Below, one piece after another: positions 3,593-33,974 of a stretch of DNA of 64,000 nt; the first letter of the stretch is position 1; every line of letters starts with the position of its first letter. The notes under the pieces were generated by a model. That model searched no databases and had not been told where the DNA came from. It saw only the letters and a list, made by a program, of their open reading frames with translations. The position numbers and the translations under genes were made by a program. This DNA comes from an uncultured bacterium (GTDB lineage Bacteria > Zixibacteria > MSB-5A5 > JAABVY01 > JAHJOQ01), in assembly GCA_965369655.1 (NCBI GenBank), contig CBDUQR010000007.1:1-64000 (forward strand), in the 5' to 3' direction.

Positions 3593-6500
3593 TTGATACA
3601 CGCCTGGCTGTGGATGAAGGCAACTGAAATTCAGTGCGAGAGGATTGTTCTGACTGTGAGTCATAACATCACAATATCTGTGTTGGCGATAATCGCATGC
3701 TGCCTGCTTTCAGGAGCGACAGTTCATGGCTCCTGGGCGTACGATGGCGATCTCGAGAGATTCAGTGCAGATTTCTTCGATCAGAATGCGGCTGCGAGTA
3801 AAGACTTTTCGGACTTAAGAGATTCGCTCTCGATCGGAATCGTCGGCCGCACGGATCAGCACACGATCCTCTTCTCGTATCAGGATTCTACTCTCGAACC
3901 GGGCGGGGCTTTGATTCTCATTTTTCCCGATGGCTTTGAACTGACGTCGCTTCTGGAGGCAAGCTATTCCGACGATGATTCGCTTAACGTCGATCTTTCC
4001 ATAGATACGCTTATTACCGCAGGCAGCAATGTCGAGATCAGATTCGATACGACCGGTTCTGCGCCAGACAGCGGTTCGTCGATTCGAATCGCACTCGACA
4101 GTATCATCAGTTCCACAACATCAGGAGAATACTGGGTGATTGCAACGTCGGTCGACAGCTCAGGTATGCTTCTTGCCGGTCCGACCATCAGCGAGCCTTT
4201 TTCACTGGAGGCGGACAGCATAGAATCCGTAGAGATCGATCCGGATTATGTCCCGTATGTCATCGCAGGGAACACCGTCGCATTTTCCTGCGCCGCAACC
4301 GATCAATTCGACAATGCAGTCGATGATTTCGAGACACTCTGGTCAGTCGTCAACATTTCTGAAGGATATGATCCGAATGGAGTGATCTCAGATGAGGGCG
4401 TCTATCTCGGACTTCACTCAGGACCGTCCAAAGTCTTCTGCAAGGTCAGCACCGGAGTCGACACCCTGCTCGACTCTGCCATCGTAATTGTTTACCACGC
4501 CGATTTTGACCACTACACTGTTTCCGGATTTCCCGAATCTGTGCTGGCCGGTACACCTCTGACGGATTCGATTGTAGTCGCTGCCGAGGATTTATACGGA
4601 AATCTCTTGACCAATTTCTCGACGATTCTCTGGTTCAAGACCAGTGATCCAAGGGCGAGTATCTCACCAGATTCCCTCTCGCCGGATACGTTCACTCCCG
4701 GCATAGACGGAATTGAGATATACCCTGGAGCCGGTTTTGTCCTGAGAACTGCCGGGCTCCAGCAGGTGACTCTGACCGATACGGCAGGGACCTCGCTGAG
4801 TGTACCTGTGTTTGTGGAAGCTGGGGCGCCTGCATCATTCGAATTAGAAGTACCGTCACATGTCATAGCCGGGCAGGAGTTCACTGTCACTGTCACCAAC
4901 CTGAAGGATGCCGCTGACAATCTGCTCGATGCAGTTGTCGAGATAGAACTCGAGACGGACGGGATTTCACCGGGTGGCGACAATCCGCAGTTGTCATCGT
5001 TCATCGTGTCGTCGGGAAGCGGATCAGCCGGTCAGGTACTCGTGATGGCCGAGACCACTGCGGTCAGGGCGACTGTCGGCTCTGTGAGCATAGTCAGCGA
5101 CCCTGTCGTCGTAAACAATGCTGCCGCCGACATTTTCACGGTCGAAATGTCTACTCCTGAAATCGTCGGCATGCCGTTCGGCTACGCCTCGATCCATGCG
5201 TTTGATCCGTATGGAAACGCTGCAGTCGACTTTGATGCTTCGGTCGACGCCGTTACGATAACTCCTGACGCGACTGGATCGGCCGTACCGTCACGGCTCG
5301 ATACTGATTCGAGTTTTATCGACGGACTCTGTGACCTCACGCGGTTCGACTTTAAGTACTATGGTCAGGCGCGATTCCTGACTTTCGCCGTCGAGTCAGA
5401 CTCCGGCGTCTATGGCGTATCGAACATGGTGGAGATCAACTCGGCTAAGATAGAGCAGCTGGCACTCGACAAGGAGCAGTATTTCGAGGGCGAGACAGCA
5501 GTGGCGACTGTGACGATTACCAATTTCGGATCGTTCGAGACGAGAATCATCGACATATCGTTGTCGTCTTCGCAGGGTCCCCTTGCGGTTACTGCACTGA
5601 CTCCGGAGCTTCCGGATACTATCGGTGGCAACGAATCACGCGACTACGAGTTGACGACTGTTATCCCTGTGAATTTTGATCCACAGATGACCAGTTTCAG
5701 CGCAGCATTCAGCGCGTTTGCGAACCAACAGCTTATCACAGACACGAGCGGTTACCTTGATTCAGCGCGGATTCTCAGCCAGAAGAATTTGGTTTATACC
5801 GATTTGTCTCTATCACCGCAGGTAATATCCAGGGGAGAGACATACTCGTTCTTCTGCCAGGTTCAGCATATCGGTGCGGTCAACGTTCAACTCGACACCA
5901 CGAGTACAATGCAATTCATATCTGATGAGAACGATACGTTTGTAACGCGGCTGTCGAATCCGATCCCAATTCCAGCTTCCGCTCAGCCGATCACCCTGTT
6001 CTTCGAAGACAAGCAAATCGACCAGGGGTTCGCATCGGGAACGTATGAAGTGTACCTGTACCTGAGAGGGACTCAGGGGCTGGTCAACTACAGCGAAGAT
6101 ATTACGCTGACCGATTCGATTCTGATTCAGAGTCCGTCGTCGATACGATTTGTCGATGGCAGCTTCAGCCCTGAGACAGCATTCCGCGGCATGGAGATCG
6201 TGCCTGAGATCACTGTCGTGAACGATGGCGAGGCATTGCTTCAACTCGATGTCGCGCGTTCGCTCCTGAGACTCACGGCCGACGACGACGAAATCCGTTT
6301 CACAATTGACGAGACAATATCCACAGTGATCGAAGGTTCCACGGTGTTGCGGTTCATGCCGAAGACGATCAGGACTTCGTTTCCACTCACGTCGAATTCG
6401 CTCACTCTGGACCTGTTCGGCGAGGAGAACGGTCATACGCAGGACATCTCGATCGATCTCGGCGAGAATCTGATTGATTTACTTCAGCAAGCCGCCGTCA

Positions 6501-7987
6501 GGCTCGTGTCGCTGACCGCTCACGCGCCGAATATGCCGAACATCAATGCAGGCATGGAATTCTATCTCACCGCAAACGTTACAAACGAATCCGAGGAAGA
6601 ACTTGCTGATATAAGCATAAGCTTCGAGTCAGACGGGTCATCGGAATTCGAGGAGACGATGATGCTCGAAAGCCTCGGTGTCGGCGAGACGGATTCGGTC
6701 ATTCTGGAAGTGACTGCCTCGACAGAGCCGAATCCATCCGAGCTGTTCACGGCGTCAATCATCTCTGCGACGGGCGTCTCGACCGGTCAGGACGCGACTG
6801 TGGCGAGTCCGCTCGACAATACCGCAGCGGTAAACATACAGTCGGCGGGACTGATCGAACTCGACGCTCGGATCGACGGCCCCCCTGCGGCGGTCGATGG
6901 AATCCTGTCGTTTGGTCAGACGTTCCATGTCGCGGCTGAGTTTGCGAATATCGGACAGGCAAACGTCGGCGCTGGCGAGATCACGCTTTCACTGCCTGAC
7001 CCTGATTTTGATGTGGCAGATCCGTTGATTGTCTCTGCTTCTGTCGACGAAGCTATCGGTTGGACTATCACGGCTCCGCGCAAGAATGGTCAGTTCGATC
7101 TGATCGTGGAATTGACAGGGATTCCGCTCGATTCAAATTCTCGCCTTCCGGCACAGGTATCGCGCAGCGCAGATACGATTCATGTCGCTGTGGAAGAAGA
7201 GGACCTGAAGCTTCGGGTCTGGTACGAGTTCTATTCGGCTGACCTTGTCGGTTCCGGCGAACAACTCGACTTACTCAAACTCAGCTTCACGGCGGTTGCC
7301 GACAATGATGAATCTCAGATCAGGATCGATGAGGTCGCACTGATGCTGTCTGATCGAAACGGCAATGCTCTCGATGCCGCCGATCTGTTCAATTCAGCAT
7401 CGGTCGAGATCGAGGATGCGGGTCAGTATTCCGGATCCCTGACAGCCGACCAGATTGTCTTTAACATTGGCGACGTCACAGTTTCGCGCGTCGACACGCT
7501 CGATGCTGTTATCACAGTCGTGATGCGCGATGATGTTCTTTCCGAGAACTTTTTCGTGTCGATTGGCAGCAGCGGGATCGACGCGATAGATTTCACATTC
7601 AATGTCGAAGGCGTCCGCGTTGTTGTGCTCGGCAGGGGAGACGGAGCGCTGGAATCCACTGCGGGTTACGGCGTTGTTCCGGCTGGACTCGACGCATCGT
7701 TCTACAACTATCCGAACCCGTTTGCGGCGGGTGTCGAGGAGACGAACATCGTCTATTTCCTCTCTCAATCGACAGACATAACGTTCGAGATATTTACGCT
7801 CATCGGGGAGAAAGTCTTTTCTAAATCGGTTGCGGCCGGTGATGCCGGAGCGCGCGAAGGAATGAATGCGCTGATTTGGGATGGCAGGAACAGCCGGGGC
7901 GATGTGGTCAGGAACGGCGTCTACATCGCGGTGCTGTCTCTCGGCTCCGGTGGCGAAGTCCGAACGAAGATCGCTGTGGTGAAATGA
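3593..7987 (+). CDS. Large acidic secreted multi-Ig-like protein with C-terminal FlgD-Ig/T9SS-like sorting domain (start may be GTG 3656)
   Basis: Hydrophobic signal-like segment, beta-rich acidic body, C-terminus YNYPNPF...IFTLIGEKV...WDGRNSRGDVVRNGVY...KIAVVK. Confidence 0.8.
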   Translation: MIHAWLWMKATEIQCERIVLTVSHNITISVLAIIACCLLSGATVHGSWAYDGDLERFSADFFDQNAAASKDFSDLRDSLSIGIVGRTDQHTILFSYQDSTLEPGGALILIFPDGFELTSLLEASYSDDDSLNVDLSIDTLITAGSNVEIRFDTTGSAPDSGSSIRIALDSIISSTTSGEYWVIATSVDSSGMLLAGPTISEPFSLEADSIESVEIDPDYVPYVIAGNTVAFSCAATDQFDNAVDDFETLWSVVNISEGYDPNGVISDEGVYLGLHSGPSKVFCKVSTGVDTLLDSAIVIVYHADFDHYTVSGFPESVLAGTPLTDSIVVAAEDLYGNLLTNFSTILWFKTSDPRASISPDSLSPDTFTPGIDGIEIYPGAGFVLRTAGLQQVTLTDTAGTSLSVPVFVEAGAPASFELEVPSHVIAGQEFTVTVTNLKDAADNLLDAVVEIELETDGISPGGDNPQLSSFIVSSGSGSAGQVLVMAETTAVRATVGSVSIVSDPVVVNNAAADIFTVEMSTPEIVGMPFGYASIHAFDPYGNAAVDFDASVDAVTITPDATGSAVPSRLDTDSSFIDGLCDLTRFDFKYYGQARFLTFAVESDSGVYGVSNMVEINSAKIEQLALDKEQYFEGETAVATVTITNFGSFETRIIDISLSSSQGPLAVTALTPELPDTIGGNESRDYELTTVIPVNFDPQMTSFSAAFSAFANQQLITDTSGYLDSARILSQKNLVYTDLSLSPQVISRGETYSFFCQVQHIGAVNVQLDTTSTMQFISDENDTFVTRLSNPIPIPASAQPITLFFEDKQIDQGFASGTYEVYLYLRGTQGLVNYSEDITLTDSILIQSPSSIRFVDGSFSPETAFRGMEIVPEITVVNDGEALLQLDVARSLLRLTADDDEIRFTIDETISTVIEGSTVLRFMPKTIRTSFPLTSNSLTLDLFGEENGHTQDISIDLGENLIDLLQQAAVRLVSLTAHAPNMPNINAGMEFYLTANVTNESEEELADISISFESDGSSEFEETMMLESLGVGETDSVILEVTASTEPNPSELFTASIISATGVSTGQDATVASPLDNTAAVNIQSAGLIELDARIDGPPAAVDGILSFGQTFHVAAEFANIGQANVGAGEITLSLPDPDFDVADPLIVSASVDEAIGWTITAPRKNGQFDLIVELTGIPLDSNSRLPAQVSRSADTIHVAVEEEDLKLRVWYEFYSADLVGSGEQLDLLKLSFTAVADNDESQIRIDEVALMLSDRNGNALDAADLFNSASVEIEDAGQYSGSLTADQIVFNIGDVTVSRVDTLDAVITVVMRDDVLSENFFVSIGSSGIDAIDFTFNVEGVRVVVLGRGDGALESTAGYGVVPAGLDASFYNYPNPFAAGVEETNIVYFLSQSTDITFEIFTLIGEKVFSKSVAAGDAGAREGMNALIWDGRNSRGDVVRNGVYIAVLSLGSGGEVRTKIAVVK

Positions 7988-9810
7988 TGAGACTGCGTAT
8001 CATATTGATCTGCTGGATTGCCTTTGTCGTCTGCCTTGGGTCTGCTTACGCACGTGATCCACAGGGAGGACGCGAGTCGCTCTTCATTCTGGGTGCGGGC
8101 GCTCGAGCGCTCGGAATGGGCGGTGCGTTCACAGGAATCGCGGACGATGTCTCCGCGTCATACTGGAATCCAGCCGGCCTCTCACTGCTCGAACATCGAG
8201 AACTGGGCGTGATGCATGTCACGTTGTATGAGGAGACTGTCTACGATTACGTTGCGGCAGCCTGGCCAATCCTCGATCTGGGGACCATAGCCGTCAGCGG
8301 GATCAGACTCGGATCGAGCGGGATCGAGTTCCGCGATCAGTTCGGGCCGCGCGGGACATACGACTACTCGACGGGTCAATACTGGCTTTCTTTTGCGAGA
8401 AGGTTATTCGGGTTCGTTCACGGCGGCTCAAATCTGAAAATCATCAGCGAGAATCTGGGCGATTTCTCGGCTACGACCGCGAGTGTCGATTTCGGCTTAC
8501 TGCTTACGCCATTTCGTGCGGTTTCGCTCGGCGTAACAGTTCAGGACGCTCTCGGGGGGGGGCTGAAGCTTTCCTCGAAAGAAGAGGAGATTCCACGTAA
8601 TATCAAAGCAGGGATCGGAGCAAAATGGCGGAGCAGGGATGAATCCTATGCGTTCACCGCGGATATTGACATAGACATGACTGAAGGACAACCGGCTTCA
8701 AGCCACGTCGGCGGAGAGTTGATGCTGTTCCAGAATCTCTTCACCAGAGTCGGATACGACAGAGAATACGTGACGTTCGGCGGCGGCGTCAAGTACGGCC
8801 TTGCTGCTGTTGATTACGCCTATAAAACACACGATGTTCTCGGGTCGAGCCACCGCATCGGCCTGACGCTGTTCTTCGGTCCGACAATAGATGAGCAGAG
8901 GCAGGCTCGCGATAGCAGGCGGCGCGAGAATGAGCAGGTGAGACTCGCTTCCGAACGCAGGTCTCGCGCTGATGCTCTCTGGGGTGCTGCGACTAACGCG
9001 TACGAAAGAAGTCAGCTCGATTCGGCGGAGGTTCTCTGCAGCCAGGTGATTGGATACGATCCGAGTCACGATGAAGCGAAGGTTCTGTTGACGAGAATCC
9101 GGTCGCTTCTGGAGCAGCAGACAAGAGAAGAGATCGAGGTTCAGAGCGAGCAGAAGGCGATGGAGAATCTCATAGCTGAACGACTCGACAACGCTCGCGG
9201 TCTCTTCGAGTCCGGCAAGCTGGCGGAGTCTCGCGCAGAATTCGACGAGGTGCTCAGACTCAATCCTGACAACACTCTCGCTCGCGATGGTCTCCAGCAG
9301 ATCGATGCGGAAGTGGATCGACAAGTCAGGTCCTATATTGCTCGCGGTGATGAGAAATTTTCGGCGCGCGAATATGCGGAAGCGATTGTGCAGTGGTCCA
9401 GGGCGCTCGCTCTGAAATCGGATTTGGTTGAAGCGACCAGGAAGACCGCAAGAGCCAGGGCGCTCATAGATGCCGACAGGAAAGTCGGCGATGCCGTTCA
9501 GGCGTACTCCGAGGGTGATACAGTGACTGCGAGACGACTCTTCGAGGAAGTTCTCGATATCGATTCAACCAACCAGACGGCGATTAGGTATATTGTGATA
9601 ATGGATCGCGAGCAGGCGCCGGTGGTGACAATGGAAGAACTGAAGGGCGATGATGAGTACTGGATTATATATCGCGAAGGGGTGCAACTGTTCCGCGATA
9701 AGAAGTTCGATGAGGCAATCGACAAGTGGGAGCTTGTGCTGCAGAAATACCCGGGCAGTCGCGAAGCCTTGCAGAATATTGAGCAGGCTAAGTTGAGAAA
9801 AGAGCGCTAA
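7984..9810 (+). CDS. PorV/PorQ-like beta-barrel fused to coiled-coil and TPR repeats
   Basis: Signal peptide; GAGARALGMGGAF..ADD.SA.YWNPAGL motif; barrel ends SHRIGLTLFFG; TPR helices follow; ATGA overlap with the upstream stop. Confidence 0.85.
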   Translation: MMRLRIILICWIAFVVCLGSAYARDPQGGRESLFILGAGARALGMGGAFTGIADDVSASYWNPAGLSLLEHRELGVMHVTLYEETVYDYVAAAWPILDLGTIAVSGIRLGSSGIEFRDQFGPRGTYDYSTGQYWLSFARRLFGFVHGGSNLKIISENLGDFSATTASVDFGLLLTPFRAVSLGVTVQDALGGGLKLSSKEEEIPRNIKAGIGAKWRSRDESYAFTADIDIDMTEGQPASSHVGGELMLFQNLFTRVGYDREYVTFGGGVKYGLAAVDYAYKTHDVLGSSHRIGLTLFFGPTIDEQRQARDSRRRENEQVRLASERRSRADALWGAATNAYERSQLDSAEVLCSQVIGYDPSHDEAKVLLTRIRSLLEQQTREEIEVQSEQKAMENLIAERLDNARGLFESGKLAESRAEFDEVLRLNPDNTLARDGLQQIDAEVDRQVRSYIARGDEKFSAREYAEAIVQWSRALALKSDLVEATRKTARARALIDADRKVGDAVQAYSEGDTVTARRLFEEVLDIDSTNQTAIRYIVIMDREQAPVVTMEELKGDDEYWIIYREGVQLFRDKKFDEAIDKWELVLQKYPGSREALQNIEQAKLRKER

Positions 9811-9945
9811 TATCATGTCCCGGGAATCCATTCACAATAAAAAGCGGCTAATTAAATCGTGGCATGGGCATCTTGCCCATGATTCACGGGCAGGATGCCC
9901 GTGCTACTACAAAAAAATATATAAACATATACCCGGGACACGACA
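9811..9945 (+). mobile_element. 135-bp MITE, copy 1, CTAA target-site duplication, internal REP doublet
   Basis: TIRs TATCATGTCCCGGG / rc TGTCGTGTCCCGGG; CTAA at 9807-9810 and 9946-9949; near-identical inverted copy at 33840-33974. Confidence 0.9.
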
Positions 9946-9962
9946 CTAAGAGAATTTATACC

Positions 9963-12791
9963 ATGTTTCGCAGGCCAATCAAAGAGTCACTCGTTACGTT
10001 TCCGGCAAAGGAGTCGGAACTCAGAGAGATAAAGTCGTACGTCGCGACCGTCTGCAATGAGGCAAACCTCGCGTCGAAGGACGTCGACAGCATACTGCTC
10101 GCTGTGGAAGAAGCCTGCACGAACGTAATAAGACACGCCTATCTTTATGCCTCCGGGACTATCAAGCTGCAGATCACGCTGACGAGGAAGCAGTTGATAT
10201 TCACCGTAATCGACAACGGCAGAGCATTCGATTTCGACGCAGCCGGAATGCCTGATCTCGACAGGTATGTGGAGACCGGGAGGAAGGGAGGCCTCGGCAT
10301 TTACCTGATCCGGAAGGTGATGGATAATGTCTCCTACAAGACTGTAGACGGCGAGAATCGTCTGAGGATGGTCAAGAAGCTGCCGAAGCAGGTGAAGGTC
10401 GCTCTGCCCGGTGCTGCCGGCATGTCGATACGACTGAAGTTCTCTCTCTGGACTTCCGCCATGTTGCTATTGGTCGTGACCGGGGCGTACTTCTACTTCG
10501 ACTCTCGTACGACATCTGCGATCACGAGTGACTTTCTGATGGATGTCGATGACCTCTCGTCGACAATCGCGAGTCAGACTGTGCCGCTTGTGGTCAACCG
10601 CAGGACTGATGTCGAATTCGATGAACTCGCCATGAGTTTCAAGAATGAGAACCGCGAGGTTGTCTATCTTGTCATCACGGATGGCGATGGGAACGTGACA
10701 GCGAACACCGAAGACCCGATGTCGATCTACTCTTTCTATGTGCTGCCCGAAGGCGTCGACTCGAAACTTCTCGGTCTGGCGCAGAGCGTCCTCTACAACG
10801 GAATGGACATGTACCACATTGTCAAGCCACTCTCGCCGGATGATGCTTCTCTAGGATTCATCAATGTTGGCGTATCCGACGAGCTGTGGAAAGACGAGAT
10901 ATACAGATCGAGACGAGGCATTCTTGTCGTGGCGGCGCTCAGCCTTGTATTCGGCGTAATCGCTGTCTGGTTCCTCTCGAACTACTTCGTCAAGCCGATC
11001 CAGAAGATCACCGAGGGCGTTCGCAGGTTTGGCACATCCGACACCGACGAACCCCTGCCTGTGGAGGGCGCGGATGAATTCAGCGCGATCGCGGCGGCTT
11101 TCAACGAGATGAAGGTCAAGATCAAAGATGCGCAGAAGGACGAAGTCGAAAAAGAGCGCATGCAGAAGGAGATGCAGGTAGCGCAGGAGATACAGCAGAC
11201 GCTTCTCCCGAAACAGTTCCCTGACATAGAAGGCTACGACATCGCGACAATATATCGCGCAGCCAAGGATGTCGGAGGTGACTACTACGACTTCGTCTGG
11301 ATCGACGAGGAGACACTCGGCATAATAGTCGCTGATGTCTCAGGCAAGGGAGTTCCCGGATCGCTCGTGATGACCATGATCCGGACGGCGGTGCGACTCG
11401 AAGCCCGGGGCAATCGGTCTGCGGTCGATATTCTGAGCAGGGTCAACGAATTTATCACAGATGATGTCAAGAAGGGGATGTTCATTACGATATTTTTAGT
11501 CGTCCTCGATTCCAGAAACAGACGGATATCGTTCGCATCGGCAGGCCACAACCCGATGATTCTGTATCGCCAGGAGGAAGACAAGACATACTTCCTCAAT
11601 CCGAGAGGCATCCCGGTAGGCATCACGCTTCCGGACGGACTTATCTTCGATGAGACGATGTCCTCTGAGTCTGTCAAACTGAAGAAGGACGATATACTCG
11701 TCATATACACCGATGGTATCACGGAGGCGATGAATCCGGAGCGAGATCAGTACGGCATCGAACGCTTCCTCCAGTTCATCAAGGGAAACTCCGCTCTGGC
11801 GTCTGATGAGTTCGCCGATAAGCTTGACGAGGATATCAAGGAGTTCACGAGAGGCGCTGAGCAGAATGACGACATAACGCTGGTCGCGATAAAAGAGAAG
11901 ATCATGGCTGATGCCTATCTTCTTCAGCGCAGGAAAAAGCTGCTGGACCTCGTAGAGTCGGGCGGGCGGACAGTCAAAGAAGCCTGCGAGGAGATGGGCG
12001 TTTCGACGTCGACATACTACAAGTACAAGAAACGATTCGAGATGTTTGGCGACGAGGGGCTGTTCAACAAGCAGTTGCGCATTGACAGCTCGCCGAGGAT
12101 GCTGTCATACGAGGAAAGACGACTGTTGCTGCAGGCGATACAGGAGCATCCGGAGCATGGGACAGCGCGCCTGAAGGCCGAGCTTGCAACAGATAAATAC
12201 GGCAGTATCGACACAGACGAGAGAATCCTGTATGATGAACTCGTCAGGCTGCGGCTGAACACCAGGAAGCTGCGGCTGGAGTTTGTTGAGCGCAAGAGAC
12301 GATCGCTCACGGATGCAGAGAAAGAGCTGCTCGCAAAGGAGCAAGTCCGTTTCCAGAAGAAAGTCGAGACGGATCGAAAGGCGTACATAGAGCGGATCAG
12401 GGAATCTGCCGCTCTCGGTGGCAATGGCAAGAAGAAAATCATGCCGGAAGTCTTCGAACGGCTTTGCGCCATCGGTCTGCCCGAAGAAGATGTCGACCTG
12501 TTCGTGAATGCTCTTGTCAATGAGGATACGGGAATAGAGAAGCAGCGCCTGATAGAACTGTTCGAGAAGCTCTCCGCTCGCGCATACCAGATTGAGGAAA
12601 CGCGTCCCGGCAGGAGAATCCTCGATCAATCGCGCTTCAAGGATGCCGATCTCAGCGGCTGGAAGAAGGCTGAGGCGGATGGCATAGACCTGAATTCGCT
12701 TGACAATGAGGACGAATCATCTACTTTCGATTTTGATACATACGCGGAAAAATTATCTCCTCGTTCAGACGGATCGGAGGATGATGCATAA
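9963..12791 (+). CDS. Membrane signalling protein: RsbW-like HATPase - TM - extracytoplasmic domain - TM - HAMP - SpoIIE/PP2C phosphatase - IS481-like HTH tail
   Basis: LAVEEACTNVIRHAY/DNG/GGLGIYLI (RsbW); VGGDYYD, ADVSGKGVPG, SAGHNP, YTDGITEA, DDITLV (PP2C); TVKEACEEMGVSTSTYYKYKKRF (HTH). True start MFRRP; the listed ATG 9864 lies inside the MITE. Confidence 0.9.
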   Translation: MFRRPIKESLVTFPAKESELREIKSYVATVCNEANLASKDVDSILLAVEEACTNVIRHAYLYASGTIKLQITLTRKQLIFTVIDNGRAFDFDAAGMPDLDRYVETGRKGGLGIYLIRKVMDNVSYKTVDGENRLRMVKKLPKQVKVALPGAAGMSIRLKFSLWTSAMLLLVVTGAYFYFDSRTTSAITSDFLMDVDDLSSTIASQTVPLVVNRRTDVEFDELAMSFKNENREVVYLVITDGDGNVTANTEDPMSIYSFYVLPEGVDSKLLGLAQSVLYNGMDMYHIVKPLSPDDASLGFINVGVSDELWKDEIYRSRRGILVVAALSLVFGVIAVWFLSNYFVKPIQKITEGVRRFGTSDTDEPLPVEGADEFSAIAAAFNEMKVKIKDAQKDEVEKERMQKEMQVAQEIQQTLLPKQFPDIEGYDIATIYRAAKDVGGDYYDFVWIDEETLGIIVADVSGKGVPGSLVMTMIRTAVRLEARGNRSAVDILSRVNEFITDDVKKGMFITIFLVVLDSRNRRISFASAGHNPMILYRQEEDKTYFLNPRGIPVGITLPDGLIFDETMSSESVKLKKDDILVIYTDGITEAMNPERDQYGIERFLQFIKGNSALASDEFADKLDEDIKEFTRGAEQNDDITLVAIKEKIMADAYLLQRRKKLLDLVESGGRTVKEACEEMGVSTSTYYKYKKRFEMFGDEGLFNKQLRIDSSPRMLSYEERRLLLQAIQEHPEHGTARLKAELATDKYGSIDTDERILYDELVRLRLNTRKLRLEFVERKRRSLTDAEKELLAKEQVRFQKKVETDRKAYIERIRESAALGGNGKKKIMPEVFERLCAIGLPEEDVDLFVNALVNEDTGIEKQRLIELFEKLSARAYQIEETRPGRRILDQSRFKDADLSGWKKAEADGIDLNSLDNEDESSTFDFDTYAEKLSPRSDGSEDDA

Positions 12792-13548
12792 AATTGCGAT
12801 AATGACCTCCAAGGGCGGTACCGGCAAGACGACGACCGCTATTAACATCGGGCACTGTCTCGCGCTGTCGGGTAAGCGAGTTCTGCTTATCGACTGCGAC
12901 AGTCAGGCCAACATCGCAATGGCGTTTGATGTTGATCCCAAACAAGGGCTTGCGGAATTGATCACCACTGGGCAGGTCGATATCGCGAAGGTGCGTCCGA
13001 ATCTGTTTATCATCGATTCAGGCGGCAAGCGGCTGGTGGAATCCGAGCTCGTGCTGGCAAGACAGGAGGATCGCGAGACGAGACTCAGACGGGTGCTCAG
13101 CCGTGTCGTCGGATCTGACTATATCATATGCGACTGTCCACCCACCATCAATCTGATCAATATCAATGCTCTGAATTTCTGCGATCATGTTGTTGTCCCG
13201 GTCTCGATGGACTTCTTCGCTTGCGAAGGCGCAAGAAAGACGATGGAACTTATCGACGAGATAAAAGACAGGATCGGACACAGCATAAATATACTGGGAC
13301 TACTCGCGACATTTTTCGACAGGCGTACGAAGATTTCGCAGAGGACGTATGACCAGCTTCTGGATCAATATGGCGATCTCGTCTTCGCTACAAAGATCAG
13401 GATCAACACGCAACTCAAAGAAGCACAGGCCAGGTTTCGTACTATCTTTGAGTTTGCTCCTTATTCGCACGGTGCGCTTGACTATTTCCTGCTGACCAAG
13501 GAGATAGCAAACGGATCGCACCGCATTCCTGCTGAGGTGACTGAATGA
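12784..13548 (+). CDS. ParA/Soj family ATPase (orphan, no parB)
   Basis: KGGTGKTT deviant Walker A, LLIDCDSQAN, DCPP, LKEAQ; GGAGG RBS; overlaps both neighbours. Confidence 0.9.
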   Translation: MHKIAIMTSKGGTGKTTTAINIGHCLALSGKRVLLIDCDSQANIAMAFDVDPKQGLAELITTGQVDIAKVRPNLFIIDSGGKRLVESELVLARQEDRETRLRRVLSRVVGSDYIICDCPPTINLININALNFCDHVVVPVSMDFFACEGARKTMELIDEIKDRIGHSINILGLLATFFDRRTKISQRTYDQLLDQYGDLVFATKIRINTQLKEAQARFRTIFEFAPYSHGALDYFLLTKEIANGSHRIPAEVTE

Positions 13549-14255
13549 TGGAGAATATCAAGATATCACTCGATGCGAGCGGCCCCAACGGTGAACTGTC
13601 GATTGTCCGCGTCGACGGCGTAATCGACACGATGACCGCTACTGAACTCGAAAGAGTCATGAACTCACTCCTGCATCAGAAAAAGTACAATATCATTATC
13701 GATCTCGGAGGCGTTGACTACATATCGTCCGCCGGATGGGGTATTTTCATATCGAACATTCGTGAAATCAGACAGAACAACGGCGACATCAAGCTTGTGC
13801 AAATGGTCCCGAACGTGCATGAGATATTCGAACTCCTCGAATTCGATTCCATCCTCCAAAGTTTCGACAAGATCGAGAAGGCGAAAAGAGATTTCAATCT
13901 GGAATATCAACCGGCAGAGAGTCTGACAGGCGGAAGGTCGGAACAGTCTGTAGTCAGCAAGATGGCCGAGGCCGGAACGGCCGTTGCGACCTCTGCGCCG
14001 CCAACAGTCGCAACAGATATCCAGGTCCAGCCGGAAGCTGATGAGAAGACGAATGACTCGTTTGAAACAGATGTCGAAAGCCGCGTTCTTGATCTGGTCA
14101 GGGATGATCCGTTCCTGTCGGTATCTGAGATTAAGAAGGTCATCAACTCCGATCAGGGGTTCGAGAAGAGGGTCGGGTGGTGGAAGATTCGCCGAGTCCT
14201 CAAGAAGAATGACCTGCTCTCGAAGAAGAAGCGTTTTCGATATTCCCGCAGTTGA
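13545..14255 (+). CDS. STAS anti-sigma-factor antagonist with linker and basic C-terminal HTH-like domain
   Basis: VDGVIDTMTA...IDLGGVDYISSAGWG...GDIKL...IFELL; tail RVLDLVRDDPFLSVSEI...IRRVLKKNDLLSKKKRF. Confidence 0.88.
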   Translation: MMENIKISLDASGPNGELSIVRVDGVIDTMTATELERVMNSLLHQKKYNIIIDLGGVDYISSAGWGIFISNIREIRQNNGDIKLVQMVPNVHEIFELLEFDSILQSFDKIEKAKRDFNLEYQPAESLTGGRSEQSVVSKMAEAGTAVATSAPPTVATDIQVQPEADEKTNDSFETDVESRVLDLVRDDPFLSVSEIKKVINSDQGFEKRVGWWKIRRVLKKNDLLSKKKRFRYSRS

Positions 14256-14283
14256 TAACGTCATAGTCCCGGCGGGGTGTTGA

Positions 14284-16011
14284 ATGCTTTTCGCTCTCAT
14301 CACTCTCCTGCTACTCGCAGGCATGCTTATCCTGAGCCTTGAAAGAGATCAGGTAATAGGAGCGTTTGCTCTCTGGGTCAGCGCATGGGTTGGGTTGCGT
14401 CTCATCGGGAGCCGCCTCGACTATCTGAGGAAGGATTCTCCTGCGCGGTGGGAAAAGCTGATGATAGAGGCGGAGAAACGACTCGGGGAGATCAGCCTGA
14501 GCGAAGACAGCGTTGGAAAAAAGTGGCAGGATTTCTGTGCGCAGATTGTTACGCAGTTCGGCTACAATGCCGCGTTTGTCGCTGTCGAGCGGGAGGGGAT
14601 GTTTAGCGCTGAGGCGTCCTCGGGATTCGACATCAGAAAGCTCCGGCAGGTTCGCATAGACTCGCAGTCTGAGTTGGTTCGCGTTGTTGCGATGTCCGGC
14701 GATCAGATCGACCTGCTCGGAATGTCCTGCGATATGGGGACTCTCGATTCGGTGATCGGAGAACAGAGCTTTCGAAGCGCCGTGCCATTGACTTGTGGCG
14801 ACCGGCTGGGCGCAGTCCTGTTCGTCTCATTCAATTCACAGTCCGACAACCGCAGACAGTATCTGACAAGCTTCTGCAAACTTGCCGCAAAGATGCTCAT
14901 GCCGAGAGACCCACAGGAGGAACGATCGCCGGGATCTCTGCCCTCCGTATCTGCGCAGAGCGATTTGCGTGGATCAAGACTGCTGCGCGATTACTTCGAC
15001 GTCACTTCGAAGCTGTTCACGATCTACAATCAGGAACTGCTCTTTGAGACGTTCGTCTCAAACATGCGCAAGCTGATGAAAGCTGAATACTGTGTCATCT
15101 ATCTGCCCGGCGAGAATGATTCAGGATTAAGTGTCGGAATCTCTTCGGGGACTTTGCCTGCTGAATTGAATGACCACACTGTGGACGTGTCTCCAGCGGT
15201 GCGCGATCTGCTCCTGAGACGTCCCGGCACATATACGGTCGACGATCTGCTCGACATGACCGGTGACGATCGCGATCTGGTTTATCTGGCGGAGTTGGGA
15301 GTCAGGATTATCACTCCAATGTCGATACCAGAGAGACGAATGGGGCTGATGTGCATTTCCGGCAGATCGCGTAACCTCCCTGATTTCAGCATCGAGGACA
15401 AGGAAACGGCGTATACCGTAAGCCAGACTGTCGAGATTATTTTGGAGAATATCCACCAGTTCAGGAAAATCGAGGAGTTGTCATACACTGACAGCATGAC
15501 GAGGCTGTTTAACTATCGGTATTTCTATAAGCGTCTGAGCGAGGAGATTTTGCGCGCGAAAAGATTCAATCGATTCCTTGCTCTCTCCATCTTTGACATT
15601 GACGAGTTCAAAGTGTTCAATGACAATCTTGGACATCAGACCGGCGATGACCTTCTCAGGCAGCTCGGAGAATTGCTGCTTGATTCGGTCAGGAGTATCG
15701 ATATTGTCTGCAGGTATGGTGGCGAGGAGTTCTGCGTGATCATGCCGGAGTCGGACAGGAAATCGTGCCGACAGTTTATGGAAAGGCTGCGCAAGAGAGT
15801 AGTAGACCATGAGTTCAGCAGCCGATTCTCGGAGGGCAGGCATACGATCACGCTCTCAGCCGGGGGCGCTATATATCCATCGGACGCAAGAAGGGTCGAC
15901 AGGCTGATATACTGCGCAGATATGGCGCTGCTCGAAGCCAAGCGCAGCGGACGAAACAGATGCGAGATGTATACGGAGGGTATAACAGAGAATGGAGAGG
16001 CGGATGTGTAG
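14284..16011 (+). CDS. Membrane-anchored GAF-GAF-GGDEF diguanylate cyclase
   Basis: TDSMTRLFNYRY, DIDEFKVFNDNLGHQTGD, RSID I-site, RYGGEEF, ADMALLEAKRSGRN. Confidence 0.92.
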   Translation: MLFALITLLLLAGMLILSLERDQVIGAFALWVSAWVGLRLIGSRLDYLRKDSPARWEKLMIEAEKRLGEISLSEDSVGKKWQDFCAQIVTQFGYNAAFVAVEREGMFSAEASSGFDIRKLRQVRIDSQSELVRVVAMSGDQIDLLGMSCDMGTLDSVIGEQSFRSAVPLTCGDRLGAVLFVSFNSQSDNRRQYLTSFCKLAAKMLMPRDPQEERSPGSLPSVSAQSDLRGSRLLRDYFDVTSKLFTIYNQELLFETFVSNMRKLMKAEYCVIYLPGENDSGLSVGISSGTLPAELNDHTVDVSPAVRDLLLRRPGTYTVDDLLDMTGDDRDLVYLAELGVRIITPMSIPERRMGLMCISGRSRNLPDFSIEDKETAYTVSQTVEIILENIHQFRKIEELSYTDSMTRLFNYRYFYKRLSEEILRAKRFNRFLALSIFDIDEFKVFNDNLGHQTGDDLLRQLGELLLDSVRSIDIVCRYGGEEFCVIMPESDRKSCRQFMERLRKRVVDHEFSSRFSEGRHTITLSAGGAIYPSDARRVDRLIYCADMALLEAKRSGRNRCEMYTEGITENGEADV

Positions 16012-16144
16012 GATGTCATATGTCGCATTTAGTCATTCCTTTGCGTTACATTGCGTTCGTCGTCTCTCAGCGAAAACAGAAATCTCTTTACACAGCATAA
16101 AACCCGGATATATTATGCCGACGTTGTTAAAAAAGGACTCTATA

Positions 16145-17122
16145 ATGCGCCTGATACAGAACACATTATGTTTGTGTGCTTTCCTCCTTTGTTTTGCGTT
16201 TGCGGCGCCCGGCGAAGTCCAGGCAGAGTATAAGATTGGTCCGGAGGATGTACTCCAGATTTCGTTCTGGCAGCAACCGACGCTTGACCAGACGGTTACC
16301 GTTCGACGCGACGGCAAGATTACGATTTCGATCATCGGTGAAATTACTGCGGCAGGCCTGAAGCCGGCGGAGCTTGCGAAGAAAATCGGCGAGAGAGCGA
16401 ATTATTACAATCCGGCCATATCCCAGGCGGCGGTGACGGTGCTCGGATTCAACAGTCAGAAAGTCTATATCAATGGTCAGGTGACGCATCCCGGCGCGTA
16501 CGCCTTCGAGGAGCTTCCAGATGTCTGGACGCTCATCAAGGAGGCTGGCGGTGTCGCAGAGATGGCGGATCTCTCCAGGGTGACGCTGATTCGAGGATCG
16601 AAAGACGCTGGCAGAATCATGACGATTAATATCGAGAAGCTCGTGGCGAGCGGCGAATTTGATGACATCCCCGGACTCTATCCGGGCGATATTGTGGAGG
16701 TGCCGCGCATGCCGGGTGGAATCGCCGGCAGCGGGCTCCCCAGGGCTGACCGGGAGCGCCGCAACATTGTCTTTATCACCGGTGCGGTAACTCGTTCGGG
16801 GCCGATCAATCTGGAAGAGGGCATGGATGTTCTGGACGCTCTTGTTATGGCTGGAGGCACGACTGTCGACGCCGACTTGAGAAAGGTGCGGGTTATCTCG
16901 AAACATCAGGGTTACTCCAGCGTTATGACTATCGATCTCGATAAGTACTCCTCCGAGGGCACGCCGCGACGCTATGTTCTGCGGGCTGAAGATACTGTCG
17001 TCTTGCCTCGAAAGACGGGCGGACTGTTCCGAGTCGGCTGGGGAACCTTTAGAGACATTGTAGCCATCACCGCGACAGTAGTGTCGACGGTGGTTCTCGT
17101 CGATCAGATCGGAAGACGTTAG
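16145..17122 (+). CDS. Polysaccharide export protein (Wza-like, Poly_export plus SLBB domains)
   Basis: Signal peptide; YKIGPEDVLQISFW...VRRDGKI...AAGL; two SLBB repeats (GQVTHPG, GAVTRSG). Confidence 0.9.
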   Translation: MRLIQNTLCLCAFLLCFAFAAPGEVQAEYKIGPEDVLQISFWQQPTLDQTVTVRRDGKITISIIGEITAAGLKPAELAKKIGERANYYNPAISQAAVTVLGFNSQKVYINGQVTHPGAYAFEELPDVWTLIKEAGGVAEMADLSRVTLIRGSKDAGRIMTINIEKLVASGEFDDIPGLYPGDIVEVPRMPGGIAGSGLPRADRERRNIVFITGAVTRSGPINLEEGMDVLDALVMAGGTTVDADLRKVRVISKHQGYSSVMTIDLDKYSSEGTPRRYVLRAEDTVVLPRKTGGLFRVGWGTFRDIVAITATVVSTVVLVDQIGRR

Positions 17123-17134
17123 CGGACAGAATCA

Positions 17135-18682
17135 ATGAAGAATCATTCACTCGAAAAGCAGATAAACCTGAGAGATGTCTGGCAGATAGCGTACAAACGC
17201 AGATGGCTGCTGATACTGCCTTTCGTTCTTGCGGTTGCTGCGGCTTACGGCGGCTGTTTCCTGCTCACTGAGAAATACCAGTCGCGGGTACAGATCCTCG
17301 TGAAAGAGGGCGAGGTGCTCGGACCTGAATTCAGGGGAATCGCGAGCGCGACCGGCATGGATGCGGTCAGAACAGAGAGGGATTTGAGGCTCTGGCAGCA
17401 GTCAGTGAAAAGTGAAATACTGTCTCCCGCGACATTGCTCAAGGTGATCAACCAGATGGGGCTGGCTGATGATCCGGAAGTCCGCGCCGAAATCAGGGAG
17501 CTTGCCGCGAAGTATCCCCAATACAGCGAAAGAGACCTGATCAACATTCAACTCATCCGAAAGCTGCAGGACGATTACATAAAGATCGGCTTTCAGGGTC
17601 AGAATGTAGTTGCGATATTGTGCGATTCCGAGAAGCCGCTCGAAGCGAGGGCGATGGCCGAGATACTGGCCGATATTTTCCGCGAGGAACAGATCAGGGC
17701 CGATTTGCTCAGTATCAGGGCGGTGCAGGAGTTCTCTACGGAACAGCTTACCATTTACAAGAAGGAATGGGAGGACGCCGAAGCCGAGTTGGCTGATTTC
17801 AAGAAGAGCTACACGAGGGTGAATGTCGGCCAGAAGGTAAGCGAAGAGATTCTCGATGGCATGACATCGGAGATCGATCAGACCAAACTGTATATGGAGG
17901 ACTTCGCAGACCAGCGCAATTTCGTGGCCGCCACTCTTGTAGACGCAGGGATTGATACGTCTATACTTGTGCTTTCCGAAGAGTTGGTCGGGTATACATC
18001 AACCCTCAGCGGGATCACAATGCAGAAAGCATCGCTGATGGAGAGATACCCGAGGACTGATCCGAAGGTTCTCGAGATGATCGGCAGGTTCAATCGAAGC
18101 ATCGATTCTCTACCGAGCTACTGTCTGCGCACGGCATCTAATTTGTATCCGAATCCCGATCCGGCGCTGCTCGAACAGACTGCGGAGTACCTTGCGCTCA
18201 GCGTAAAGATCGACCTGGCCGTGCAGGGGCAGGTGATCCTTGCGAAGGCTCTGGAGAAACTGAAAAACAGGTTAACGAAGTGGCCGGACTATGAGATCGA
18301 GTTGGGGAGGATGGAACAGAAGGCCACGACTAAAAAAGACATTTATCTCAAGTTCAATACCCAGCTCCTTGGATCGCGGATTAACGAGGACGCTTTCCGC
18401 AAGGAGGCAGAAAATCGTTACAGAATTATAGAACCGGCTACTTTGCCCTTGGCTCCAATTTATCCCGATCGTTTCAAAATAGTCGTACTCGGCTGCGCCC
18501 TTGGGCTGATACTCGGGGTTGGAGCCGTACTACTCGCAGAAGTCCTGGACAACAGTCTGCGAGACATCTCCGAGACAGAGTCATATCTGGGACTCAAAGT
18601 GCTTGGAACCATCCCGAGGATAGCCGCTAAGCGGAAGTCTTCGCGAGCGCCGAATCCTGAGCCGATGGAGATTGCAAAATGA
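17135..18682 (+). CDS. Polysaccharide co-polymerase / chain-length determinant (Wzz/GumC, membrane half of Wzc)
   Basis: N-terminal TM after KRRWL, coiled coils, IIEPATLP..P..P, C-terminal TM, LGLKVLGTIP. Confidence 0.88.
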   Translation: MKNHSLEKQINLRDVWQIAYKRRWLLILPFVLAVAAAYGGCFLLTEKYQSRVQILVKEGEVLGPEFRGIASATGMDAVRTERDLRLWQQSVKSEILSPATLLKVINQMGLADDPEVRAEIRELAAKYPQYSERDLINIQLIRKLQDDYIKIGFQGQNVVAILCDSEKPLEARAMAEILADIFREEQIRADLLSIRAVQEFSTEQLTIYKKEWEDAEAELADFKKSYTRVNVGQKVSEEILDGMTSEIDQTKLYMEDFADQRNFVAATLVDAGIDTSILVLSEELVGYTSTLSGITMQKASLMERYPRTDPKVLEMIGRFNRSIDSLPSYCLRTASNLYPNPDPALLEQTAEYLALSVKIDLAVQGQVILAKALEKLKNRLTKWPDYEIELGRMEQKATTKKDIYLKFNTQLLGSRINEDAFRKEAENRYRIIEPATLPLAPIYPDRFKIVVLGCALGLILGVGAVLLAEVLDNSLRDISETESYLGLKVLGTIPRIAAKRKSSRAPNPEPMEIAK

Positions 18683-33839: not shown

Positions 33840-33974
33840 TGTCGTGTCCCGGATATATGTTCATATATTCTTTTGTAGTAGCACGGGCATCCTGCCCGTG
33901 AATCATGGGCAAGATGCCCATGCCACGATTTAATATGCCGCTTTTTATTGTGAATGGATTCCTGGGACATGATA
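33840..33974 (-). mobile_element. 135-bp MITE, copy 2
   Basis: Reverse complement of 9811-9945; flanked by TTAG at 33836-33839 and 33975-33978. Confidence 0.9.

Follow-up and report, generated by a model that had tools for sequence, protein, structure and literature searches.

We analysed a 64,000-nt stretch of the Zixibacteria contig CBDUQR010000007.1 (assembly GCA_965369655.1), here called the window and numbered on the + strand, which carries a partner-switch module within an exopolysaccharide and cyclic di-GMP (c-di-GMP) gene block. Both partners of the switch, a membrane sensor with kinase and phosphatase domains and its presumed STAS-domain substrate, carry C-terminal helix-turn-helix (HTH) modules of transposase type, and neither module is followed by a transposase core. 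The genes of the block lie on the + strand and are tightly packed, in the order PorV/TPR, sensor, ParA, STAS, GAF-GGDEF and then export genes, as judged from the list of open reading frames (ORFs) and from Pfam and NCBIfam matches. In the ORF list, the end of the sensor gene overlaps the beginning of ParA, whose own end overlaps the beginning of STAS.

7876..9810, + strand: PorV/PorQ-like and TPR protein (NCBIfam PorV_fam E 1.7e-33, above cut-off); upstream gene, syntenic in most related loci
9963..12791, + strand: sensor gene, 942 aa; kinase, membrane sensor, HAMP, PP2C, bipartite HTH and C-terminal extension
12784..13548, + strand: ParA/MinD-type ATPase (AAA_31 E 3.5e-39, and CbiA)
13545..14255, + strand: STAS protein; STAS domain, linker and basic tail
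14284..16011, + strand: GAF-GGDEF diguanylate cyclase (GGDEF E 1.8e-42, GAF E 4.1e-7); next gene after STAS
15992..18682, + strand: polysaccharide export (Wza-like) and chain-length (Wzz/GNVR) genes (Poly_export, SLBB, Wzz and GNVR matches; synteny)

Further members of the block encode a TPR protein, a second ParA-fold protein and a DUF3473 polysaccharide deacetylase. Directly 5' of the PorV/TPR gene lies an ORF of 1464 aa (3593-7987) with no Pfam family at E <= 0.001. The usual endpoint of a partner switch is a sigma factor, or a cyclase in the case of biofilm switches. A search for a sigma factor, confined to the window, gave no significant match among the scanned ORFs of at least 150 aa.

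The sensor ORF is listed as 9864-12791 (975 aa), and the Pfam and NCBIfam residue numbers given below follow this 975-aa numbering. On comparison with its relatives, however, we place the true start at 9963, giving 942 residues, because 24 of the 36 homologues found are 923-943 aa long. The upstream ATG at 9864 sits inside an inserted dispersed repeat and is a false start. This repeat, of about 135 bp (9808-9948), resembles a miniature inverted-repeat transposable element (MITE), with terminal inverted repeats and two adjacent GGGCA-N3-TGCCC palindromes. It sits between the PorV/TPR and sensor genes, a second, inverted copy lies at about 33845-33965, and its core occurs at 20 places in the genome, compared with none for a reversed control. 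The paired palindromes (9866-9900) were considered as operators and dropped, being part of this dispersed repeat.

HTH modules on both partners of the switch

The domains of the sensor and of the STAS protein were located as follows.

9999..10376, + strand: RsbW/SpoIIAB-type kinase (HATPase_c_2, PF13581, E 1.8e-27, residues 46-171)
10440..10991, + strand: two hydrophobic segments (Kyte-Doolittle) flanking a presumed periplasmic domain of about 140 residues
10971..11123, + strand: HAMP (PF00672, E 1.2e-10, residues 370-420)
11307..11894, + strand: PP2C (SpoIIE-type) phosphatase (PF07228, E 3.5e-48, residues 482-677)
11925..12089, + strand: first HTH, HTH1, PAI-like (HTH_23, HTH_28 and HTH_Tnp_1 above Pfam cut-offs)
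12090..12308, + strand: second HTH, HTH2, RED-like, homologous to the STAS tail (IS481 profile, hhalign)
12312..12416, + strand: one long helix behind the HTH module (helix 137-171 in the model of the tail; predicted local distance difference test, pLDDT, about 92-95)
12417..12788, + strand: acidic, low-confidence C-terminal extension (pLDDT 46-71; net charge -4 and -8 in its two parts)
13545..13901, + strand: STAS domain, classical SpoIIAA/RsbV type (Ser61/Ser62 at 13725-13730)
13902..14054, + strand: acidic, variable, disordered linker (residues 120-170, pLDDT <50; net charge -5)
14055..14252, + strand: basic helical tail, RED-like HTH (helices 170-187, 193-202, 212-221 and 227-235, pLDDT about 88-91)

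PAI and RED are the names of the two halves of such bipartite, paired-like DNA-binding domains. The kinase domain also matches the NCBIfam RsbW model (E 1.7e-19), below its equivalog cut-off. The Kyte-Doolittle scan flagged residues 317-343 (942 numbering) as hydrophobic, and the first segment (about 160-179) was picked out visually in the output of that scan; the presumed periplasmic domain between them has a weak Pfam match to sCache_3_2 (E 0.13). The metal-site motifs of the PP2C domain are invariant in 23 homologues, as are Ser61 and Ser62 of the STAS domain in 23 sequences.

An earlier note on this DNA, made from the sequence alone, had described apparently domesticated IS481-like DNA-binding domains on both partners. 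The peptides it quoted from the two tails lie where it had placed them, each within a single open frame, and the bipartite HTH of IS481 layout that it saw after the PP2C domain was recovered by profile searches. Residues 688-742 scored above the Pfam cut-offs for HTH_23 (33.9 bits against 24.6), HTH_28 (31.2 against 25) and HTH_Tnp_1 (26.5 against 24.1). The earlier note had also suggested comparison with HTH_29 and HTH_32; the former fell slightly below its cut-off and the latter, over residues 717-778, clearly so (22.5 against 33.7). The NCBIfam IS481 transposase model (NF033577) matched residues 690-817 with E 5.3e-15, and the IS630 model matched with E 4.5e-8 (profile positions 2-128 of 299). 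The IS481 match covered positions 2-122 of the 284 in the profile and left positions 123-284 unmatched, such that its score of 55.7 bits compares with a family cut-off of 224. Consistent with this, and with the earlier claim that no transposase core or inverted repeats follow, no DDE/rve catalytic domain was detected in the sensor with Pfam at E <= 1, and a scan of 9700-14400 for terminal inverted repeats yielded nothing beyond short, imperfect pairs and the termini of the unrelated MITE-like repeat.

When the final 295 residues of the sensor were modelled with AlphaFold2, using 26 homologous tails, the same division appeared. HTH1 is modelled as helices 2-18, 24-31 and 35-53 (pLDDT 90-96) and HTH2 as helices 69-81, 87-94, 106-115 and 121-132 (pLDDT 93-97), and what follows is one long helix and then a low-confidence acidic stretch, not a transposase core. 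The recognition helix of HTH1 has the residues S-x-S-T-Y-Y-K in every one of 23 sequences, which represent two architectures. A fold search with the sensor tail placed TnsB, Pax paired domains and Tc3 in its top rows, all of them weak matches, and a phmmer search of the tail against PDB sequences gave no real match.

The tail of the STAS protein was harder to classify from a single sequence. Alone, it had a weak Pfam match to HTH_Tnp_Tc3_2 (E 0.002). Among 38 homologous tails, 23 match this family (best E 2.7e-5), three match HTH_21 and two HTH_32, and a profile of the 38 found as its best PDB match a 62-residue Sleeping Beauty transposase chain (5unk_A), at a borderline E of 0.046. The tail is strongly basic, with a median net charge of +9 over the last 58 residues and a median isoelectric point (pI) of 11.3 (n=81 tails). 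Its invariant residues are D188, P189, F190, W212, W213, L219, R230, R232 and R235.

The earlier note had observed that the STAS tail parallels the second half of the sensor segment, and this likeness proved to be homology. A BLASTP comparison of the two tails gave nothing significant, and hhalign with 23-sequence alignments gave a weak result (P about 0.001, probability 12-22%). With larger alignments, of 81 STAS tails and 45 sensor HTH regions, hhalign aligned the tail with HTH2 over 66 columns at 95.5% probability and E 1.6e-8. Single STAS tails from loci labelled Calditrichia, which are the most similar to sensor HTH2, matched the HTH2 of sensors from other genomes directly (phmmer, E 6.4e-15, 46.8 bits, in a set of 45). 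On these comparisons the STAS tail and the sensor HTH2 are homologous to each other; the sensor holds a full PAI plus RED-like module, and the STAS protein only the RED-like half. A quick tree separated 43 of 44 sensor HTH2 sequences from 77 of 78 tails by a long branch (Shimodaira-Hasegawa-like approximate likelihood ratio test, SH-aLRT, 99), with two long-branch exceptions, and in 0 of 35 cases was the partner from the same locus the best match. In this tree, then, the two are separate old lineages.

Beyond its own family, the tail profile matches proteins with tandem bipartite HTH modules; in 11 of the 26 scanned, the modules are fused to family-2 glycosyltransferases. These HTH-glycosyltransferase proteins (P0255, P0256, P0276, P0277, P0284, P0285, P0288, P0292, P0296, P0302 and P0307) are the tail's nearest outside relatives, and two clusters of them carry the names Patescibacteria and Microgenomates; the same HTH type thus appears to have been recruited to polysaccharide enzymes in another phylum. 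None of the 26 outside relatives has a DDE/rve catalytic domain at E <= 1e-4. A search for shorter relatives of the sensor HTH gave five proteins, four with a PP2C domain and one with a TPR extension; all were fragments of the same family, with neither a stand-alone form nor a transposase among them. The window's own genome holds no close transposase relative of the modules and no IS481 copy above the family cut-off. Since the outside relatives lack a transposase domain and nothing but same-family fragments turned up among the shorter relatives, the modules are, on these profile searches, of transposase type by family and not recently taken from an insertion sequence. The description as domesticated IS481 domains thus holds as regards the transposase-type HTH but names too specific a family. 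Elsewhere in the window, a 96-aa frame at 48203-48370 matches the C-terminal end of the IS481 model (positions 229-284, E 5.8e-13) and is probably a transposase remnant.

Both tails are widespread and not confined to this genome. A search with the STAS-tail protein found 2675 homologues at E <= 0.001, of which the 120 listed are 223-268 aa long and cover 92-100% of the query; those that are named are Zixibacteria. In collections of one genome per species, at least 508 stretches encode a STAS-tail relative. Eighty loci from these stretches were kept for comparison, and the tail is present in all 80. A tail-only profile found it in 228 of 285 genomes from the phylum, and in 172 of the 198 that are of high quality. 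The sensor HTH and tail occur in 20 of 31 relatives, the genome itself included, being present in some families and not found in others. The window's own genome has one copy of each tail.

The fusions are in frame and intact, as the earlier note had stated, and their conservation across the phylum shows them to be old. Against a genome of the same genus, nonsynonymous (dN) and synonymous (dS) divergence were 0.085 and 1.65 for HTH1, 0.063 and 1.84 for the STAS tail and 0.025 and 0.92 for the STAS domain; dS is saturated even at this distance, so that dN/dS is rough and only the relation dN << dS is usable. This pattern of substitution places the tails under purifying selection.

Two other observations concern the tail profile. 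Several genomes of one family, mostly of one genus (G034-G044, G048, G049 and others), give two matches each, one of which sits in a 73-aa frame; they could reflect paralogues, or copies of the tail that stand alone. In a 3274-aa protein (P0164), 41 stretches match profile positions 12-44 (E 5.4e-82), as repeats of a fragment-like unit.

ParA, locus types and an A-run in sister families

The ATPase encoded between the two partners has an invariant deviant Walker A motif, KGGTGKT; K10 and G11-T18 are invariant among its homologues. It scores 88 bits against the ParA_partition model of NCBIfam (cut-off 180) and also falls below the cut-off of the BcsQ model. Of the 80 loci, 65 have a sensor gene upstream of the STAS gene and could be typed; the other 15 are truncated contigs or have another context.

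34 of 65 loci: sensor HTH present, ParA present (the window's type)
10 of 65 loci: sensor HTH present, ParA absent
21 of 65 loci: sensor HTH absent, ParA absent
0 of 65 loci: sensor HTH absent, ParA present

ParA is thus present only in loci whose sensor has the HTH. Since these loci are kin and not independent, the counts overstate the support and are to be read as a pattern, not as a statistic. The STAS tail, in contrast, is present in all locus types, with or without ParA. The co-occurrence therefore ties ParA to the sensor extension rather than to the STAS tail. The earlier suggestion that both tails might serve as ParB-like partners of ParA accordingly gains ground for the sensor extension and loses it for the STAS tail. 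No match to the ParB (ParBc) family was found in either protein with Pfam at E <= 1.

The ParA loci share the long helix of the sensor, its acidic region and a short conserved C-terminal motif, which begins at about 12618 in the window. The 10 loci with the sensor HTH and no ParA are mostly labelled Calditrichia, and their sensors have a different, longer C-terminal extension. In this Calditrichia-labelled variant (L061, L064, L072-L075, L077, L078 and L080) the sensor tails are 225-668 aa long, and neither ParA nor GGDEF genes lie nearby. In the 21 loci without either HTH or ParA, the STAS gene directly follows the PP2C domain. A GGDEF cyclase gene lies downstream of STAS in 50 of the 65 sensor-holding loci; it is absent nearby in 9 of the 10 loci with HTH but no ParA, and the STAS tail is still kept there.

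In many genomes of other Zixibacteria families, the tail lies in a frame of its own of only about 100-140 aa. We fetched 44 such split loci (L093-L136), all outside the window, in which the place equivalent to about 13900-13960 of the window could be compared. Without exception, the tail is encoded in the -1 frame relative to STAS, and the overlap of the two frames falls on a run of 9 to 11 A residues (A9-A11) at the junction of STAS domain and linker (44 of 44 in both respects). A script counted 41 of 44 with at least eight A inside the overlap; the remaining three, read by eye from the printed context, have A9 runs whose first two A are part of the stop codon of the tail frame. In 20 of the 44, no ATG, GTG or TTG lies in the tail frame upstream of the domain. 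After the lysines, the -1 frame encodes the short linker motif of the in-frame genes, as read by eye (21 of 44 by a strict pattern).

In-frame genes of the type without ParA and sensor HTH have an A10 run in 19 of 21 cases. A run of at least eight A is found in 0 of 34 ParA-type loci, and the STAS gene of the window is a single frame with no run. The length of the run varies (9, 10 or 11) while the offset is constant, which argues against a simple assembly error. For one genome, contigs from three runs of one sample, which may be the genome's own source sample, showed A10 and no indel. In a library clustered at 50% identity, 84 of the best 150 tail matches were shorter than 160 aa with the match at the end (a hand count from the table). 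Taken together, the sequences suggest that the A-run supports programmed -1 frameshifting or transcriptional slippage, giving a STAS-only and a STAS-HTH product.

A probable direct route to DNA, its rivals and known systems

The observation from which this analysis began, that HTH modules stand on both partners of the switch, is confirmed, and its interpretation is partly supported. The conserved layout probably lets the switch act on DNA directly and not through a sigma factor. We infer that the tails bind DNA, with CapS as a tested precedent of a different HTH type. In CapK/CapS (Chambers et al., EMBO J 2026; PMC13373217), CapS is a repressor made of a STAS domain and a winged HTH; when a GHKL kinase phosphorylates the serine of its STAS domain, the CapS dimer comes apart and DNA is released.

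We propose a model along the following lines. An outside signal would set the balance between the kinase and phosphatase activities of the sensor and hence the phosphorylation state of Ser61/Ser62. Depending on this state, the kinase domain would either sequester the STAS-HTH protein or leave it free, possibly in self-associated form, to bind DNA with its tail. The STAS-HTH protein might then regulate polysaccharide genes directly, as CapS regulates its targets, taking the place of a classical sigma factor. A second output may lie in the GAF-GGDEF cyclase encoded next to it, by analogy with HsbA-HsbD and SiaC-SiaD. Finally, the bipartite HTH, long helix and acidic tail of the sensor probably act with ParA, tying or positioning the membrane complex on the nucleoid. 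As a whole, a direct STAS-HTH route to DNA together with a sensor HTH that works with ParA is the best explanation that we can offer, and we would give it an even chance of being correct.

A number of points weigh against this direct route. The recognition helix of HTH1 is invariant across distant lineages, which would fit a conserved protein partner equally well as a DNA site. The invariant GWW and RFRxxR motifs of the STAS tail are not those of the Tc3-type profile, and its ligand could therefore differ. A fold search with the whole STAS-protein model, in which the tail was not separate, returned a list filled by STAS matches. The sole palindromes near the genes belong to the 20-copy dispersed repeat. 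In CapS the STAS domain is joined directly to the winged HTH, whereas a disordered linker of about 50 residues lies between them here. The kinship of the loci and the saturation of dS, both noted above, also limit what the counts and rates can carry.

The strongest alternative is that the HTH-like domains are protein-docking modules whose fold has been kept as a scaffold; the STAS tail would recruit its protein to the GGDEF cyclase or to the export machinery, and the sensor module would dock ParA or other proteins. The invariance of the HTH1 helix over two architectures and distant lineages, which is unusual for operator-specific regulators, speaks for it, as do the hydrophobic nature of the invariant DPF and GWW motifs and the finding that the HTH of the kinase CapK has no detectable role in DNA-dependent regulation (PMC13373217). 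Moreover, the known outputs of STAS proteins in biofilm switches are reported to be protein partners, namely HsbA-HsbD (PMC5085249) and SiaC-SiaD (PMC8457831). Nevertheless, the tail is strongly basic, its profile belongs to the DNA-binding HTH families of transposases, and it is kept in those loci that have no GGDEF gene nearby. On balance, we consider docking possible but rather unlikely as the explanation.

Aromatic-plus-arginine motifs bind c-di-GMP in some receptors. A second alternative is that the basic STAS tail binds c-di-GMP from the neighbouring cyclase, or else an acidic membrane surface, and feeds back on the switch. The invariant tryptophans and the arginine-rich end of the tail (W212, W213, R230, R232 and R235) would suit such a role, and the cyclase gene adjoins in most sensor-holding loci. 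Against this, Pfam scans of the proteins and tails matched no known c-di-GMP-binding family, the tail profile matches HTH families, and loci with no cyclase nearby keep the tail, making this alternative improbable. That the tails are functionless remnants of a recent insertion-sequence insertion can be dismissed, since, for all their family resemblance to transposase N-termini and the transposase fragments and MITE-like repeat in this genome, they are conserved in hundreds of species with invariant motifs and dN << dS, have no flanking inverted repeats and no close transposase relative, and form two separate old groups in the quick tree.

Almost throughout the phylum the STAS substrate retains a domain of DNA-binding type, and in a large subset the sensor enzyme does too. 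Such a layout points to a direct path from membrane signal to DNA in bacteria that are as yet uncultivable, and provides a clear instance of DNA-binding modules of transposases put to use in signalling. The link to ParA and the A-run of the sister lineages provide concrete hypotheses that are testable in heterologous hosts. In its broadest form, the model would hold that the Zixibacteria and neighbouring lineages of the Fibrobacteres-Chlorobi-Bacteroidetes (FCB) group use a sigma-free, one-step route in which the HTH tail makes the STAS protein a transcription factor for polysaccharide genes, the ratio of tailed to untailed protein is fixed in the DNA or by -1 slippage, and the sensor HTH with ParA tethers a signalling and export complex to the nucleoid. 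We think it quite unlikely that this generalisation holds in every part. A literature search, confined to one library of papers, found no description of the STAS-HTH/sensor-HTH family or of its slippery run.

Set beside known systems, the locus has the traits of partner switching of the RsbW/RsbU/RsbV and SpoIIAB/SpoIIE/SpoIIAA type, with a GHKL kinase, a PP2C phosphatase and a STAS protein that has a conserved phosphorylatable serine. Its HTH modules belong to the same Pfam and NCBIfam families as the bipartite DNA-binding domains of IS481, IS630 and Tc1-mariner transposases (Tc3, Sleeping Beauty). They differ from these in having no DDE domain or terminal repeats and in being fixed in a conserved operon, where the STAS protein has only the second half of the module.

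ParA-type ATPases work with adaptor proteins, as in ParA-ParB, PpfA-TlpT, McdA-McdB and BcsQ. The likeness here is that an ATPase with a deviant Walker A motif co-occurs with a neighbour that combines a module of DNA-binding type with a short, conserved motif at its terminus. In contrast to those adaptors, the partner predicted here from gene context would be a membrane sensor enzyme without a ParB domain; of the traits of ParABS, the locus has the ParA with its deviant Walker A motif and not the ParB partner.

In enzyme layout and biology, the nearest systems by analogy are Hsb, SypE-SypA and SiaABCD, none of which is known to have an HTH. In the HptB-HsbR-HsbA-HsbD pathway of Pseudomonas aeruginosa, HsbR is reportedly a soluble response regulator and HsbA a plain STAS protein without an HTH. 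In SypE of Vibrio fischeri, a receiver domain reportedly stands where the present sensor has its membrane part and HAMP. These features set the two systems apart from the present locus, as does the lack of a known ParA in both and of a known HTH on either Syp partner. By published accounts, the Hsb pathway resembles it in that one kinase and PP2C protein acts on a STAS protein linked to a diguanylate cyclase in the decision between biofilm and motility (PMC5085249), and SypE/SypA in that a bifunctional kinase/phosphatase and its STAS substrate are encoded in a polysaccharide locus (PMC10120452). SiaABCD of P. aeruginosa is reported to be alike in that biofilm formation is jointly controlled by a kinase, a phosphatase of HAMP-PP2C type, a switch protein and a diguanylate cyclase (PMC8457831), and differs in having no known HTH domains; the NCBIfam scores (SiaA 64.9 against a cut-off of 700, SiaD 145 against 290) place the window's proteins outside that family.

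In logic, the closest parallel is CapK/CapS. A profile search of the PDB found no chain named CapS, and the comparison is one of description and not of sequence. In that system (PMC13373217), an anti-sigma-type GHKL kinase phosphorylates a STAS protein with a C-terminal HTH, and the kinase protein has an HTH of its own. No sigma factor is involved, and the STAS-HTH protein is the DNA-binding output of CapK/CapS, as we would propose for the present locus. The differences are equally clear. The HTH of CapS is an ArsR/MarR-like winged helix, whereas the tail described here is a Tc3/RED-type domain. CapK is a soluble HTH-STAS-GHKL protein activated by single-stranded DNA and encoded upstream of an immune operon; here the order is GHKL-membrane-HAMP-PP2C-HTH in a membrane sensor, and the context in the window is one of polysaccharide export, c-di-GMP and ParA. 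The two share the STAS domain with a C-terminal HTH, and not the architecture or setting of the kinase. By analogy, then, CapK/CapS is the nearest tested system in logic, and the locus described here would be a second, independent case, built from a different HTH.

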